Sequence record: PQ850603.1
Direction: 5' to 3' (one strand)
Source of the DNA: Escherichia phage GertrudWoker_Bas73
DNA: 43,856 nt
Position numbers and translations under genes: made by a program. Below the pieces are notes generated by a model. It was not told the origin of the DNA. It ran no database searches and worked only from the letters and a program-made list of their open reading frames with translations. Positions 3,337 through 43,856 of the stretch are shown here, one piece after another. The stretch's first letter is position 1. The number at the start of each line of letters is the position of its first letter.

Positions 3337-3358
3337 AGCCCCGAAAGGGGCTTTCTTA
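3337..3358 (+). terminator. rho-independent terminator-like hairpin after portal gene
   Basis: 'agcccc gaaa ggggct' stem-loop followed by 'tttctt'. Confidence 0.5.
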
Positions 3359-4439: not shown

Positions 4440-4900
4440 TGATGGGCTTTTTCAAAGTAACTGATGTGCCGTCACGTCGCGTAGTCCAGTACGCTCGGGT
4501 GTCTGGCTCCGGTGAGAACGTAACCTACGTTGAGGATGAAAGTGTACTAGGTACACCTGTAGACGAGATGCCGTACGCAGACAAGACAGGTATCGCACTC
4601 TCTGCCGCTGGTATGCTTTATGAAATTCCGTATCTGGCGGACGCTGGTGACGTGTATTTCTCTGTGCAACCGAAAGACACTGAACTTACAGATGACAGCG
4701 CAACTATCACTGTCGAAGTTAAGGCGGGTAAAGCACCGTATGCCCTGACCTGGTACAAAGACGGTAAGGAAGTGGTAAACGCCCCGGAAGAGGCCTTGTC
4801 TCTGACGGTTAATGCAGTTGGTGAATACTTCGTTAAAGTTACCGATGCCGGTGGCGTAGAGGCCGTCAGTAAAGCGGCGAAGGTCGCTAAACCAGAATGA
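4439..4900 (+). CDS. hypothetical protein with C-terminal Ig-like segment
   Basis: start overlaps upstream stop (ATGATG); C-terminal 'YALTWYKDGKEV...GEYFVKVTD' resembles Ig-like beta-sandwich domains. Confidence 0.4.
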   Translation: MMGFFKVTDVPSRRVVQYARVSGSGENVTYVEDESVLGTPVDEMPYADKTGIALSAAGMLYEIPYLADAGDVYFSVQPKDTELTDDSATITVEVKAGKAPYALTWYKDGKEVVNAPEEALSLTVNAVGEYFVKVTDAGGVEAVSKAAKVAKPE

Positions 4901-4903
4901 TAA

Positions 4904-4930
4904 AAGGCCCCATTAAGGGGCCTTAGTTTT
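4904..4930. terminator. bidirectional hairpin terminator between convergent genes
   Basis: 'aaggcccc attaa ggggcctt' with T-run 'agtttt' downstream and A-run upstream. Confidence 0.6.
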
Positions 4931-5133
4931 CAACGGAATCTTGTGTTTAAATCCTGCTCATGGACAACCCTCAGAACAGTGTCATAATCCCCGTATCTTC
5001 CAGGTTCAAATATATCTAATGCCTTGTAAGCAGACATTGCGTCAAGGAAAACCTGCAGAACCTTTTTAACCCGGCACAAGTCACCGTCGAACTCTTCATC
5101 GAACTCTTGAACTACTTCGCAAATTGCATACAT
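4930..5133 (-). CDS. hypothetical small protein (67 aa)
   Basis: minus-strand ORF with GGAGG RBS (complement of 5140-5144) and its own promoter at 5161-5189. Confidence 0.5.
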   Translation of the reverse strand: MYAICEVVQEFDEEFDGDLCRVKKVLQVFLDAMSAYKALDIFEPGRYGDYDTVLRVVHEQDLNTRFR

Positions 5134-5160
5134 TTTTCACCTCCTGTTTAAGTTAACTGA

Positions 5161-5189
5161 ATAGTACCCTATTATATTGGGGTGTGCAA
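5161..5189 (-). promoter_or_regulatory. sigma70-like promoter TTGCAC-N17-TACTAT with embedded AATAGGGTACTATT palindrome
   Basis: minus strand reads 'TTGCACaccccaatataatagggTACTATtcag' about 25 nt upstream of the 4930..5133 start. Confidence 0.5.
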
Positions 5190-5241
5190 ACTATTTATTT
5201 ACGTATTCCAGTTATTCCACCGAATTGTAAATGTTGGAATA

Positions 5242-5257
5242 AACTATTCGAATAGTT
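5242..5257. repeat. perfect 16-bp palindrome AACTATTCGAATAGTT
   Basis: self-complementary; overlaps the -35 of the promoter at 5256-5284; carries the same CTATTC/GAATAG half-sites as the promoter operators. Confidence 0.6.
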
Positions 5258-5284
5258 GACTTTTCACTGAAAATGTGCTAAGCT
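5256..5284 (+). promoter_or_regulatory. sigma70-like promoter TTGACT-N17-TAAGCT
   Basis: spacing fits consensus; about 225 nt upstream of the Rz start, so it drives a long leader or a short RNA. Confidence 0.35.
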
Positions 5285-5464
5285 CCACCTGAGCTTGTGA
5301 AGTATGAACAAGCGACCGCGGCGCGGGCAGGTAACGGAGCGGGACGTAAGTCCTGAGTGTAGTTACGCTGACGCGTTCGGAAGGGCCATACTCTATTGCT
5401 TGTGTAAAAAGTAACAGGTTTACTTAGATTACGCCGTTTCTATGTTTAAATGATAAGGACTAGC

Positions 5465-5490
5465 GCCCTGCTTTAAGGCAGGGCTTTACT
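5465..5490 (+). terminator. stem-loop / weak terminator in spanin leader
   Basis: 'gccctgc tttaag gcagggc' followed by 'ttt'; located 20 nt upstream of Rz RBS 'gaaagggg'. Confidence 0.35.
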
Positions 5491-5508
5491 TATCGAGAAA
5501 GGGGAAAC

Positions 5509-5895
5509 ATGAATCTTAAAGCAACTGTCGTAGCGGGAGCATGTTTCATCATCCTGGCTTACGCCCACGGCATTTACCAGTATCGCAGCGGCTGGAGCGA
5601 AGGCCGGGCGAATCTCGTTTCGCAGCAACAGCAGAAAGCGCAGGCTGAGTTAGCGAAGAAAACACAACGGCAGCAGCAGGACGAATCGAAGGCAGCCGCC
5701 GCTGACAACGAAGGCAAGACGAAATCAGAGGTGATTACCCGTGAAGTCGTTAAGTACATTAGAACGCCTGGTCGCAGCGTGTGCACTTTTGACCCTGAGC
5801 GCGTGCAGCTCAAGTCCCGCGCCGTCGCAAACGCCAATTCCATCCCCGGATATGACAATGATGCAGCCTCCGTGCAAACTGGCAGCGCCAAGTAG
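5509..5895 (+). CDS. Rz: i-spanin (Rz-like)
   Basis: 128 aa; N-terminal TM helix 'VVAGACFIILAYAHGIY' then Gln/Ala/Lys-rich coiled-coil; contains an embedded out-of-frame lipoprotein ORF. Confidence 0.6.
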   Translation: MNLKATVVAGACFIILAYAHGIYQYRSGWSEGRANLVSQQQQKAQAELAKKTQRQQQDESKAAAADNEGKTKSEVITREVVKYIRTPGRSVCTFDPERVQLKSRAVANANSIPGYDNDAASVQTGSAK

Positions 5896-6004
5896 CGACG
5901 CTGACGAGGATTTAGCTATCGACGTTCAGAACGCTGAATGCGTACGGCAGCTGCGGCTGAAAGTGTTCATGTTGCAGGATTACGTGAGGAATATTCTGGA
6001 ATAG
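5741..6004 (+). CDS. Rz1: o-spanin (Rz1-like outer-membrane lipoprotein), overlapping Rz out of frame
   Basis: GTG start within Rz; signal peptide with lipobox 'LSAC'; Pro-rich mature region 'SSSPAPSQTPIPSP'; extends 109 nt past Rz stop. Confidence 0.5.
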   Translation: MKSLSTLERLVAACALLTLSACSSSPAPSQTPIPSPDMTMMQPPCKLAAPSSDADEDLAIDVQNAECVRQLRLKVFMLQDYVRNILE

Positions 6005-6086
6005 TTGCCTTGTATGTTGGAATAATTTATTCTTGACATGTAAATCCGGGAGGCCCGGATTCCAACGTCCAGGGGACATACTGACT

Positions 6087-6788
6087 ATGAATCGTTTTTT
6101 ACGTTATCCGTTCCAGGAAGAAGCTGGAGCAGAAGATAAAGCTGGTGGCGGTGACGCTCCTAAAATGTTCACCGCTGAAGAAGTTCAGGCGCTGATTGAG
6201 AAAGAAGTTGCCGGGCTTAAGGCTAATCAGGAAGCATTGTTGGCGGAGAAGAAAGAAGCCGCTCGCAAAGCAAAAGAGGCCGAAGAAGAACGGCAGCGCG
6301 CGCACCAGGAGGCGTTAAAAGCCGCTGGTAAGATGGATGAGTTCGAAAAGACGATTCGTAGCCAGTACGACCCTGTGTTAGCCGAGAAAGACGGTCGCAT
6401 CTCCAGAATGGCAGAGCGTATCCTCGGCAGCGAACGTAAAGCGGTGCTAGGCTCTTTCGCGGGTGACTTTATTACCCCAGAAGCAGTGGACATTCTTGCG
6501 CCGTTCGTTAAGACTGAGTTCGAAGGCGATGATGTGGTTACTAAGTTTGTTGGTGCAGACGGTAACGTAATCACGACTGACCCGGAACAGTTCCGCAAAT
6601 ACCTGCGCGAACACAAGGCGTTTTCGCATTTGATCAAAGCAAATGCAGCTTCCGGCGGCGGGGCTTCCGGTAGCAAAGGCGGCGGGGCCGCACCAGCGTT
6701 TAAAGACATGAGTGAAGCAGAGCGTTTAGCCCTGTATAAATCGAACCCTGCCGAATTTGAACGGCAACTTAAAGCCCTGAGGAAATAA
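6087..6788 (+). CDS. scaffolding protein (putative)
   Basis: Ala/Glu/Lys-rich predicted coiled-coil protein immediately upstream of the major capsid gene; track ORF starts 6033, ATG at 6087 preferred. Confidence 0.5.
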   Translation: MNRFLRYPFQEEAGAEDKAGGGDAPKMFTAEEVQALIEKEVAGLKANQEALLAEKKEAARKAKEAEEERQRAHQEALKAAGKMDEFEKTIRSQYDPVLAEKDGRISRMAERILGSERKAVLGSFAGDFITPEAVDILAPFVKTEFEGDDVVTKFVGADGNVITTDPEQFRKYLREHKAFSHLIKANAASGGGASGSKGGGAAPAFKDMSEAERLALYKSNPAEFERQLKALRK

Positions 6789-39825: not shown

Positions 39826-40118
39826 TGTCGTTAGCAACTGACATCCTGAAACGAAGCGGCCTTGCGCCGCTGTCACCGAGAGCGAAGACACGTATACACA
39901 AGCGTCGCCGTAACGTGCTGTACCCAGAGATACAAGAACGGCGTAAAGCTATCCGCGCCTGTGGATTCCAGAACGGAAAGGCCGTGAATCTCGGTGAGTT
40001 TAAAACAAAGGAACGCGCAGCTATCGCGAACCGGCTATTTAATTACTGGAAATCGCTGGGGTACGATGATATTCCGACGAAACCACAGAGACGACAATAC
40101 ATCTGGAGACATAAATGA
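39825..40118 (+). CDS. possible AP2-like DNA-binding protein
   Basis: ATGA overlap; basic; 'GKAVNLGEFKTKERAAIANRLFNYWKSLGY' loosely resembles AP2-type domains. Confidence 0.3.
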   Translation: MSLATDILKRSGLAPLSPRAKTRIHKRRRNVLYPEIQERRKAIRACGFQNGKAVNLGEFKTKERAAIANRLFNYWKSLGYDDIPTKPQRRQYIWRHK

Positions 40119-40555
40119 CTACTATCGCGTTTGACGGAAAGACAATGGCCTGTGATACCCGTGTTGTGTGCGGGAGTAACTGTTACAACACAGACACAAA
40201 GATATACGAGAACGAATTTGTTGTTATTGGGGCGGCTGGCGATGCAGGGGTTGGTATCCTTTTAGTGGAGGACGATAGTATTTTAGTGCCTAAGCACTAC
40301 GATTTTGATTTCTCTGCCTTGGTGTGGGTTAAAGACATCGAAACGTTGTGTAGGGTGGAGTTCTATAAATCTTGGGATTGTGCTCTTAGTTTGGTTATTC
40401 AGATTGCGGACAGCTTTTCCGCCGTTGGTTCAGGCGCCCCTTATGCCCTAGCGGCTATGGAATGTGGGTATTCGGCGCAAGGTGGTGTAGCAGTTGCATC
40501 GAAGTTCGACCCTGACACCGGCGGCAAGATTATTACCAAACAACTATTAGGATAA
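40115..40555 (+). CDS. HslV-like N-terminal-nucleophile hydrolase (proteasome beta-like), compact
   Basis: 'MTTIAFDG' with Thr right after Met; 'VVIGAAGDAG' and 'AVGSGAPYALAAME' match recalled HslV signatures. Confidence 0.5.
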   Translation: MTTIAFDGKTMACDTRVVCGSNCYNTDTKIYENEFVVIGAAGDAGVGILLVEDDSILVPKHYDFDFSALVWVKDIETLCRVEFYKSWDCALSLVIQIADSFSAVGSGAPYALAAMECGYSAQGGVAVASKFDPDTGGKIITKQLLG

Positions 40556-40614: not shown

Positions 40615-40923
40615 TTGGATAAATTTACTGAAACAGTGACAGGCTGGCTTCTGGCTGCCGCACTAGCCGGTGGGGTAATCGGACTGCGACAACATAAGTC
40701 CGCTATTTCTGGACCTATCGACGGCTTCTGCTTTATCGCAACTGGCTTCACCTGCGCCGTATTTGGTGCACCTCTCGCCGCTCAATGGTTTGGTATTACC
40801 GGCGAACGCGAGATAGCTGGCCTGGGCTTCATTATCGCTATTCTCTGGATGCCTATCTATTCCCGTCTCTCCGGTATCGTCGCAGGAGAATACATCTCAC
40901 GTCGAGGAGGCCCGGATGAATGA
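40615..40923 (+). CDS. holin
   Basis: 102 aa with three hydrophobic helices and charged C-terminus; TTG start after 'ggagg'; upstream of endolysin. Confidence 0.55.
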   Translation: MDKFTETVTGWLLAAALAGGVIGLRQHKSAISGPIDGFCFIATGFTCAVFGAPLAAQWFGITGEREIAGLGFIIAILWMPIYSRLSGIVAGEYISRRGGPDE

Positions 40924-41188
40924 GCTATTCTGGTTCGGCGGTATGCTGGCAATCGGGGGCACATCGCTGTTTAATGTATATCATCCCAGCGTGGACGACG
41001 GATTATTTGGCCGGGTGCTCTATATCCTGACTGCTATAGTCTGCGCCGCCGGATGTATCCACCTGTTACAGGGCAGCATGTCACCGACGCTGCCTGAGAC
41101 ATTAATCACAGTAGTCGCGCTGCGCCAGATTCGTCAGGCGTGGCTGTCATACGGAGGACATAAGCGTGTCTCGAAATATTTCAGATAA
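40916..41188 (+). CDS. second holin/antiholin-like membrane protein
   Basis: 90 aa, two hydrophobic helices; overlaps previous gene stop. Confidence 0.45.
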   Translation: MNELFWFGGMLAIGGTSLFNVYHPSVDDGLFGRVLYILTAIVCAAGCIHLLQGSMSPTLPETLITVVALRQIRQAWLSYGGHKRVSKYFR

Positions 41189-41278
41189 TGGACTTACCGC
41201 AGATAAGCTGCGCGAGGTTTTACACTACGACCCCGATACCGGAGTTTTCGCGAACCATAAATTACGGGAAGGTGCTTT

Positions 41279-41764
41279 ATGAGAAACATTAGCAACAATG
41301 GCATCAAATTCACCGCCGCGTTCGAGGGATTCCGCGGAACTGCGTATCGTGCTACGCCAAATGAGAAGTACCTGACTATTGGGTACGGTCATTATGGGCC
41401 AGACGTAACGCCAGGCAAGACCATCACCCCGGGACAAGGCCTCCTGTTACTGAATCGTGATATGGCTAAGGCCGTAGCTGCGGTTGACGCAGCAGCACAC
41501 CATTCATTGACACAGGCACAGTTCGATGCAGTGTGCGACCTGGTATACAACGCAGGTGCTGGTGTGATTGCTGCTACTACCGGCACGGGTAAGGCACTGC
41601 GTTCTGGTGATATTGCAACGCTGCGGGCTAAGCTGGCGATGTTCATCAACCAGAACGGCAAACCGCTACTTGGCCTGCGTCGCCGTACTGCGGGCCGTCT
41701 GGCGCTGTTCGACGGTAAACCGTGGCAAGAGGCTGAGGCTATCGGGCGCGCGGTGAAAGGTTGA
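41279..41764 (+). CDS. endolysin (lysozyme-like muramidase)
   Basis: 'FTAAFEGFRGTAYRATPNEKYLTIGYGHYG' with catalytic Glu context typical of phage lysozymes; RBS 'gggaaggtg'. Confidence 0.8.
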   Translation: MRNISNNGIKFTAAFEGFRGTAYRATPNEKYLTIGYGHYGPDVTPGKTITPGQGLLLLNRDMAKAVAAVDAAAHHSLTQAQFDAVCDLVYNAGAGVIAATTGTGKALRSGDIATLRAKLAMFINQNGKPLLGLRRRTAGRLALFDGKPWQEAEAIGRAVKG

Positions 41765-43802: not shown

Positions 43803-43856
43803 TACATCCCGCCCAATCCCCTTATATAATCCCTTTAGACGCGTAGGGCGCGTCTG

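Follow-up and report, generated by a model that had tools for sequence, protein, structure and literature searches.

A putative overlapped spanin pair of the Jersey family in the head module of a Kagunavirus, and the candidate leader RNA that precedes it

In phage lambda, the spanin genes Rz and Rz1 are the last of the S-R-Rz lysis cassette, and the LysB/LysC genes of P2 also lie inside the lysis cassette. The P2 pair is listed under 'Overlapped', and the T4 spanin genes PseT.3/PseT.2 are unlinked from those of the holin (t) and the endolysin (e) (Kongari 2018, PMC6139136). The closest described system to the locus discussed here is the 'Jersey' overlapped spanin family, which has 27 members, including Jersey, SETP3, SE2, K1G, K1H and K1ind1-3. 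The Jersey genes overlap by 155 bp, Cys45 and Cys67 of the o-spanin are invariant, and two helices joined by a beta-containing linker are reported for the i-spanin of this family (Kongari 2018, PMC6139136).

The window, that is, the whole stretch of DNA analysed here (43,856 nt of Escherichia phage GertrudWoker_Bas73, PQ850603.1), is of the Kagunavirus lineage (Guernseyvirinae), and the region of interest is 96-97% identical to vB_Eco_K-02, Golestan and Bas70-76. It holds two genes that, with a probability of roughly 90% judged from their sequences, encode the i- and o-subunits of a two-component spanin of the published Jersey family. A preliminary description had proposed an overlapped two-component spanin pair, in which the gene of a type II membrane protein (5509-5895) contains, in another frame, a lipoprotein ORF that runs past its stop. 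The gene structure is as it was described, and the assignment is supported by PHROG families, by the annotation of phage Sciku and by the family of Kongari 2018. The features of the pair are the following.

5509..5895, + strand: i-spanin gene (Rz equivalent); ATG start, 128 aa, N-terminal transmembrane domain (TMD) at about residues 5-23, predicted helical periplasmic domain, Cys92
5727..5734, + strand: Shine-Dalgarno sequence AGAGGTGA of the o-spanin gene, spaced 6 nt from its GTG and lying within the i-spanin coding sequence
5741..6004, + strand: o-spanin gene (Rz1 equivalent); GTG start, 87-aa lipoprotein precursor, +1 frame relative to the i-spanin gene
5795..5806, + strand: lipobox L-S-A-C, with lipidation and cleavage predicted at Cys22 and with Ser at +2 (outer-membrane sorting)

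The o-spanin gene overlaps the i-spanin gene by 155 nt and extends 109 nt beyond its stop. The length of this overlap, the +1 frame, the sizes of the two products (128 and 87 aa) and the o-spanin residues Cys45 and Cys67 are all shared with the Jersey family. Both subunits are homologous in sequence to members of that family, as found with PHROGs and with tblastn (62-97% identity over Kagunavirus and Jerseyvirus loci); protein identity is 91-97% to the Kagunavirus members and 62-67% to the Jerseyvirus members. The i-spanin matches phrog_2536, 'Rz-like spanin', over its full length (E=2e-56), and the o-spanin matches phrog_1267 (E=4e-20, residues 10-86) and phrog_5672 (E=3e-30, residues 41-87). 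Further, the annotation of Sciku by the Center for Phage Technology (CPT) gives 'i-spanin' and 'o-spanin' at exactly equivalent coordinates, marks a ribosome-binding site at the equivalent of 5727-5734, and refers to the K1G entries named 'overlapping inner/outer membrane spanin'. The pair is one more Kagunavirus allele, with the signal peptide LVAACALLTLSAC where other Kagunavirus alleles have ...STMLASC, and shows no difference of substance from the Jersey family.

The two proteins were compared with the criteria that Summer 2007 and Kongari 2018 give for two-component spanins. The i-spanin is small and has one N-terminal TMD and a predicted N-in/C-out topology, according to hydropathy and to an AlphaFold2 helix that begins at residue 3. 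Its only hydrophobic stretch covers residues 5-23 (19-aa window, mean Kyte-Doolittle 1.72) and is preceded by Lys4; the remainder is hydrophilic, rich in Gln, Ala and Lys, and contains no other hydrophobic segment. The single-sequence AlphaFold2 model (overall pLDDT 59.7) shows a long helix at residues 3-63 (pLDDT 66-85) and a second, low-confidence helix at 69-84, and leaves residues 85-128 unmodelled; being of low confidence beyond residue ~65, the model was used for the N-terminal helix only. The predicted periplasmic part has one cysteine, Cys92.

The o-spanin precursor, which would be translated from its GTG behind a strong predicted ribosome-binding site, opens with MKSLSTLERLVAACALLTLSAC followed by SSSPAPSQTPIPSP (mature start SSSP). 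It has a predicted signal peptidase II signal, composed of a basic n-region, a 10-residue hydrophobic core and the lipobox L-S-A-C (LTLSAC) with its cysteine at residue 22, and no Asp at +2. The mature part is short (66 aa) and Pro-rich, with all 8 prolines in its first 30 residues. Cysteines for intermolecular disulfides are present in both partners, namely Rz Cys92 and Rz1 Cys45 and Cys67. When all six frames of the 43.9-kb window were searched with a lipoprotein rule (ORF of at least 40 aa, lipobox Cys at 15-30, uncharged hydrophobic h-region, net positive n-region), 5741-6004 was the only ORF to pass; 30 shuffled genomes gave a mean of 0.07 such ORFs. As it is the sole ORF with a lipoprotein signal in the genome, no other o- or u-spanin candidate competes with it near the endolysin. 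A second spanin beside the endolysin was considered and rejected, no ORF with a lipoprotein signal being found there.

Most GenBank records do not present the o-spanin in this form: they call just a signal-less protein of 47-48 aa that begins at an internal ATG, or give the i-spanin the wrong name, 'o-spanin'. These records correspond to a different reading of the locus, according to which the second ORF is translated only from internal ATGs (~5852-5860) as a cytoplasmic peptide of 47-48 aa, and the lipoprotein signal is a by-product of the Rz frame. RefSeq and Pharokka-style annotations of Golestan and Bas71 agree with it in giving genes of 144-147 nt, and phrog_5672 is a 47-residue profile that was built from short calls of this kind. 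The long form is used both by the CPT annotation and by Kongari 2018 (PMC6139136). Conservation was examined in 48 IMG/VR loci together with GenBank relatives (~50, with 62-97% i-spanin identity). None of them interrupts the +1 ORF, and in all the overlapped relatives the start codon is a GTG or ATG at one fixed site, behind GAGG in nearly all of them and GGAGT in one. The lipobox cysteine stays at residue 22/23 while the h-region and the signal peptide as a whole change (LVAACALLTLSAC, LAAACALSTMLASC, ALAALSVSFLLNGC); its contexts are LSAC, LASC, LSGC and LNGC, the last being the Jerseyvirus lipobox, with an atypical -2 residue. Moreover, one relative in which the genes are separated (L038) provides the same mature domain with its own, unrelated signal peptide, LFLSAVIIGITGC, with ITGC and the cysteine at 16-18.

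Nucleotide diversity bears on the same question. In the part that encodes Rz only, diversity at positions 1/2/3 of the Rz frame is 0.112/0.088/0.241, an excess at the third position of its own frame; past the Rz stop, the corresponding values in the Rz1 frame are 0.085/0.032/0.245, again with a third-position excess. In the overlap that encodes mature Rz1, diversity is flattened to 0.125/0.099/0.153 in Rz-frame positions, as expected where both frames are constrained, although it is still highest at the Rz third positions, which would suit translation from the internal ATGs. There is purifying selection in both frames. A +1 ORF arisen by chance is ruled out by the conservation in relatives, by the frame-specific diversity and by the uniqueness of the ORF among lipoprotein-signal candidates. 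Taken with the fixed start site, the retained lipobox and the separate signal peptide of L038, the flattened overlap makes the internal-ATG reading very improbable. Automated gene callers give no support to the long form, yet a signal-less o-spanin would be biologically senseless.

If the GTG-initiated protein is indeed the o-spanin, a mechanism can be proposed from what is established for spanins in general. The N-terminal TMD of the i-spanin would anchor it in the inner membrane, with its helical domain reaching into the periplasm, while the o-spanin would be exported, cut by signal peptidase II, lipidated at Cys22 and, owing to the Ser at +2, directed to the outer membrane. The C-terminal regions of the two would then bind to each other, forming a complex that spans the periplasm and is threaded through the peptidoglycan. 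This complex would remain inactive as long as the wall is intact. Once the holins (40615, 40916) have let the endolysin (41279) through and the wall has been broken down, it would disrupt the outer membrane, probably through fusion of the two membranes. Topology, lipidation, complex formation and lytic function are all inferred here, the last from architecture and family curation. Spanins are held inactive by the peptidoglycan until the endolysin acts. Being inactive until the wall is degraded, they do not set the timing of lysis and need only precede it, so they have no need to adjoin the holin gene or to share its timing. In this lineage, the pair is fixed at the start of the scaffold-capsid-tail block, 7.6 kb downstream of the endolysin.

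The pair resembles lambda Rz/Rz1 in outline, with an inner-membrane type II protein and an outer-membrane lipoprotein predicted from the +1 frame of the same DNA. It differs in that lambda Rz1 is fully embedded whereas the o-spanin gene here is overlapped, and there is no detectable sequence homology between the two systems. The Pfam profiles of lambda Rz and Rz1 gave no match to the pair at E<=0.1, the only hit being DUF2514 (E=0.004; 17.7 bits against a cutoff of 26); as nothing was above threshold, the pair is not assigned to those sequence families. It is thus predicted to work like Rz/Rz1 without being its sequence relative. P2 LysB/LysC has the same overlapped two-component architecture and is of a different family.

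The lack of a Pfam Rz/Rz1 match, together with a location that is unlinked from the holin and endolysin and lies between decoration and scaffold genes, might also suggest a membrane protein and a lipoprotein without a role in lysis, such as a superinfection exclusion system (T5 Llp, Cor-type) or an accessory to head assembly. Such a function would have to account for the full spanin signature of the locus: a type II TMD protein, a Pro-rich outer-membrane lipoprotein in the +1 frame, conserved periplasmic cysteines and a conserved o-spanin C-terminus. The host, moreover, is Gram-negative, and the genome has no other lipoprotein ORF of the o- or u-spanin type. Nor is the location an argument in itself, since unlinked spanins are known from T4 (Kongari 2018, PMC6139136). 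A non-lysis function is accordingly considered quite unlikely. T4 PseT.3/PseT.2 is a precedent for lysis functions that are split between regions, but it differs from the pair in the window in that its genes are separated and not overlapped, belong to another family and lie outside the head module.

How far the pair is split from the remaining lysis genes depends on the map that is used. The lysis genes in question are listed below.

40615-40923, + strand: holin (holin matches for the two holin genes are phrog_2359/phrog_2508)
40916-41188, + strand: second holin (same PHROG matches)
41279-41764, + strand: endolysin (Pfam Phage_lysozyme, E=2e-27; PHROGs endolysin)

PHROGs and Pfam Phage_lysozyme confirm the holin/holin/endolysin genes that had been noted at 40615-41764. 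The gap of ~35 kb that had been reported between them and the spanin genes exists only in linearised coordinates. The window is a complete, circularly permuted genome opened at the gene of the small terminase (terS). In five relatives whose records open elsewhere (OQ696342, PQ571290, MH051334, MG852086 and PQ579973), the counterpart of the last base of the window runs directly into that of its first base, which makes the window the whole permuted genome. The 35-kb separation is an artefact of linearisation and reflects where the circular map was cut. From the endolysin stop (41764) to the Rz start (5509) the distance is 7.6 kb (7,600 nt), with the endolysin upstream and on the same strand. Between them lie small + strand ORFs and the terS, terL, portal, head-morphogenesis and Hoc-like genes, and from ~38.4 kb to the Hoc-like stop at 4900 genes are called on the + strand only. 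At 7.6 kb on the circular map, the spanin genes do not adjoin the holin and endolysin genes as they would in a canonical lysis cassette.

The placement of the pair inside the head module, as first described, is correct: PHROGs identifies the neighbours as a Hoc-like decoration gene and a scaffold gene, one on either side. The order Hoc-like gene, variable spacer, Rz/Rz1, scaffold and major capsid protein (MCP) was found in 50/50 loci, and is kept even in six phages in which the scaffold and MCP have been replaced. Beyond Guernseyvirinae, Dhillonvirus (HK578-like; PaulFeyerabend Bas15) has a distant member of the i-spanin family, with 40-57% identity over the matched 29-41% of the protein. In PaulFeyerabend Bas15, an overlapped pair follows an SPP1-gp7-like minor capsid gene and precedes the scaffold and MCP genes, and Hafnia phage TS33 has the same layout. 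Among the genomes compared, a place in the head module is therefore the invariant layout of Guernseyvirinae and Dhillonvirus and is not unusual there.

The region 5' of Rz contains a number of candidate regulatory elements, and we hypothesize that it is a late-operon regulatory region. They are given here with a related element downstream of Rz1.

4904..4924, no strand: GC-rich palindromic hairpin that separates the Hoc-like gene (+) from the convergent ORF 4930-5133 (-)
4930-5133, - strand: convergent ORF of 67 aa, between the Hoc-like gene and Rz
5231..5249, + strand: direct repeat ATGTTGGAATAAnnTATTC, copy 1; holds the palindrome GAATA-N3-TATTC and lies just 5' of TTGACT
5256..5284, + strand: promoter-like site; TTGACT, 17-nt spacer ending in TGc (extended -10), TAAGCT at 5279-5284
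5291..5492, + strand: candidate structured leader RNA; H1 at 5293-5313, nested three-helix stem at 5316-5380, terminator-like hairpin at 5465-5484
5465..5484, + strand: GC-rich hairpin GCCCTGC/GCAGGGC, then TTTACTT; lies 24 nt 5' of the Rz ATG; from the terminator scan
6014..6032, + strand: direct repeat, copy 2; followed by TTGACA and a hairpin at 6043-6061, in the Rz1-scaffold spacer

A scan of 5134-5509 for the sigma-70 consensus flagged no promoter. The site at 5256-5284 matches sigma-70 at 5/6 positions of the -35 and was missed, below the scan threshold, because its -10 matches at only 3/6. It was recognised by reading the sequence and from its conservation, as it is kept in both Kagunavirus and Jerseyvirus, the latter having TAGACT or TTGACT and then TGy-TACGCT. 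The hairpin at 4904-4924 is probably a bidirectional terminator, and Sciku has an annotated terminator at the equivalent position, after its Ig-like gene. Another terminator-like hairpin is found at 3337-3352. The two copies of the 19-nt repeat bracket the leader-spanin cassette, each just 5' of TTGAC(T/A), and the palindrome GAATA-N3-TATTC has only these two occurrences in the window, where shuffles give an expectation of 0.28 matches to the 18-mer. Both genera conserve the Rz1-scaffold spacer, with compensatory changes in its hairpin (AATCCGGG/CCCGGATT versus ACACCGGG/CCCGGTGT). The palindrome was also considered as an operator common to the lysis cassette, which was rejected as the motif is absent from that cassette.

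These elements bear on the proposal, made in the preliminary description, that the spanin genes and the holin/endolysin genes belong to different transcription units and probably to different temporal classes. Separate transcription units are plausible in view of what lies between the two groups, that is, the hairpins at 3337-3352 and 4904-4924, the convergent ORF 4930-5133 and, directly upstream of Rz, the promoter-like site and leader. The same elements could be read as a distinct regulatory design, in which the split location places the spanins in another temporal class than the holin and endolysin, and it fits with such a design that the operator-like GAATA-N3-TATTC motif occurs only at the promoter-like sites of the spanin and scaffold genes and not upstream of the holin. 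However, the two groups are really 7.6 kb apart, in a single run of genes on the + strand. In the one RNA-seq study of a Kagunavirus (vB_Eco_K1B4), which is of coarse resolution, lysozyme, head-morphogenesis, capsid and tail genes share a class, a broad one that holds 42/57 genes; the head-morphogenesis and capsid genes in it flank the spanin slot, and the spanin genes are not individually named in the transcriptome paper or its supplements. Spanin biology, for its part, needs no co-timing with the holin. A difference in temporal class is thus unsupported and, as an explanation of the layout, doubtful. Ten small ORFs around the lysis cassette were compared with PHROGs, and none was recognised as an antiterminator or late regulator; nothing on late-gene control in this phage group was found in the literature searched.

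A separate observation concerns the ~200 nt from the promoter-like site to Rz, which are conserved and look like a structured leader RNA. The stretch 5291-5492 folds with a minimum free energy (MFE) of -70.9 kcal/mol (z = -2.8). Relatives annotate part of it (5304-5414) as a 36-aa protein, 'orf36', and this frame is broken or absent in 21/51 relatives: six are frameshifted to 9 or 17 aa, one is rewritten, two are extended and twelve are without it. Of these twelve, eleven are Jerseyvirus-type loci in which the start region is deleted, and in the other (L028) the start context is changed. The leader helices are kept by compensatory changes at the nucleotide level despite the broken frame, and orf36 is unlikely to be a gene. 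When the core stem (5316-5380) was searched for with a covariance model, each Kagunavirus or Jerseyvirus locus gave exactly one copy, scoring 88-106 bits in the Kagunavirus type and 34-37 bits (E about 1e-4) in the Jerseyvirus type. The window has no further copy, and the loci of Dhillonvirus, Hafnia TS33 and Klebsiella klb_E gave none, so that the leader can neither be tied to the holin region nor followed outside Kagunavirus and Jerseyvirus. In Dhillonvirus, the i-spanin gene directly adjoins the head gene before it, and no leader lies between them.

Pairing in the core was counted on an alignment fitted to the model, as a MAFFT alignment of the leader misaligns P2, P3 and H1 between the two genera. 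On this alignment, which leans towards structure, 94.4% of cells are paired as against 25-40% with slid partners. Both sides have changed in 10/22 core pairs, with most of the changes coming from the single Kagunavirus-Jerseyvirus split. The stem of the predicted hairpin at 5465-5484 is proven by four-state covariation, one of its pairs occurring as C-G, G-C, A-U and U-A. As a terminator, this hairpin has a U-tract in the window and in the other Kagunavirus copies, and only UU after the stem in the Jerseyvirus copies. RNAalifold also predicts a pairing of 5289-5303 with 5488-5502 that touches the Rz Shine-Dalgarno sequence (98.5% paired versus 35-65% when slid, all of the variation coming from one clade split). 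A search of 4800-6200 against Rfam gave no match at E<=1, and the whole window likewise gave none that reached gathering score.

Late leaders with which the stretch may be compared are the PR'-6S RNA-tR' region of lambda and the put RNA of HK022. The late genes of lambda, too, begin with lysis genes. By analogy with PR'-6S RNA-tR', the locus appears to have a promoter-like site, a non-coding transcript of ~200 nt and a terminator-like hairpin before the late genes. It differs from the lambda and HK022 leaders in several respects: none of ten ORFs in its neighbourhood was recognised as a Q-like or other antiterminator gene; its Jerseyvirus hairpin has no U-tract; and there is no sequence or Rfam relationship to them. 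It is conceivable, at odds well short of even, that the spanin genes are the first cistrons of a late structural operon controlled by an undescribed, structured ~200-nt leader RNA (5291-5492), running from the conserved extended -10 promoter-like site to the covarying terminator-like hairpin that adjoins the Rz ribosome-binding site. The leader could be of the lambda-PR'/tR' type or a put-like antitermination leader, or could act as a switch in which pairing between its 5' and 3' ends masks the Rz Shine-Dalgarno sequence.

Collectively, the spanin pair itself changes little, as the family is known and so is its position, both being already catalogued in hundreds of related phage genomes. For annotation, the 87-aa GTG-initiated o-spanin is the biologically coherent call, in place of the 47-48-aa version found in most Kagunavirus and Jerseyvirus records. 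The locus also illustrates that linearised maps of headful-packaging phages mislead on distances: in the Kagunavirus window, the lysis cassette sits just upstream of the packaging and head genes. While the pair itself is of low priority, the probable leader RNA is the one thing worth follow-up. If the proposed role is true, the leader would set the timing and amount of the spanin and capsid mRNA, and, if real, it would offer a handle on late-gene control in a phage group that is much used in therapy work.

A conserved leader RNA of about 200 nt (window 5291-5492) lies upstream of the i-spanin gene Rz and is probably structured. It is present once per genome, whether Kagunavirus or Jerseyvirus, and had no match in Rfam at E ≤ 1 within 4800-6200 or at the gathering score across the whole window. 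The leader and the features around the spanin pair are as follows.

Features of the leader and spanin region in the window
4930-5133, minus strand: ORF of 67 aa, phrog_27256
5231-5249 and 6014-6032: direct-repeat copies (ATGTTGGAATAAnnTATTC), each containing the palindrome GAATA-N3-TATTC
5256-5284: promoter-like site accompanying the leader
5293-5313: leader hairpin H1
5316-5380: nested three-helix stem of the leader
5465-5484: covarying terminator-like hairpin of the leader
6043-6061: perfect 8-bp hairpin AATCCGGG-AGG-CCCGGATT, between the stop of the o-spanin gene Rz1 and the scaffold start

The hairpin at 6043-6061 carries compensatory changes in Jerseyvirus (ACACCGGG/CCCGGTGT). The leader is overlain by orf36 (5304-5414, 36 aa), which many relatives in GenBank list as a "hypothetical protein". 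In 21 of 51 relatives this ORF has a broken frame, is rewritten or is missing, yet the RNA helices persist; orf36 is therefore probably not a protein-coding gene.

The annotation of the spanins themselves suffers from a systematic error across GenBank relatives, in which the o-spanin is cut to 40-48 aa and left without its signal peptide, and the "o-spanin" label is in some records given to the i-spanin (for example, NC_042084 5586-5729, PQ850615 5836-5982 and NC_073191 gp46/gp47). At the lysis cassette, a 146-aa ORF directly upstream of the holins (40115-40555) matches, at 1e-33, a PHROG family named "peptidase HslV family" and is an unusual neighbour for such genes. Further, positions 43856 and 1 are contiguous in at least five relatives opened elsewhere; the window is therefore a complete, circularly permuted genome cut at the start of the small-terminase gene terS.

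Among the relatives' loci L001-L049, the spacer from the Hoc-like gene to the spanin promoter-like site (window 4901-5300) is a hypervariable slot, the distance from the Hoc-like gene to orf36 ranging from ~140 to 950 bp. It holds small minus-strand ORFs that differ from phage to phage; Golestan, for instance, has two ORFs other than that of the window. In six Kagunavirus-like contigs (L006, L008, L020, L027, L029 and L032) the scaffold gene is a different one, at 36-44% identity, and no MCP homologue is detectable, yet all six retain the spanins. In the four included in the spacer alignment (L006, L008, L027 and L032), the spacer downstream of the spanins is conserved up to the scaffold start codon, marking a sharp mosaic junction.

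The genome has no copies of the ATGTTGGAATAAnnTATTC repeat beyond these two. Both sit just 5' of TTGAC(T/A) and therefore flank the leader and spanin cassette. Of the 26 GGAATA/TATTCC copies in the genome, 6 fall within two clusters, at 5204-5241 and 5988-6024. The repeat may be the operator of a regulator, or a remnant of promoter duplication.
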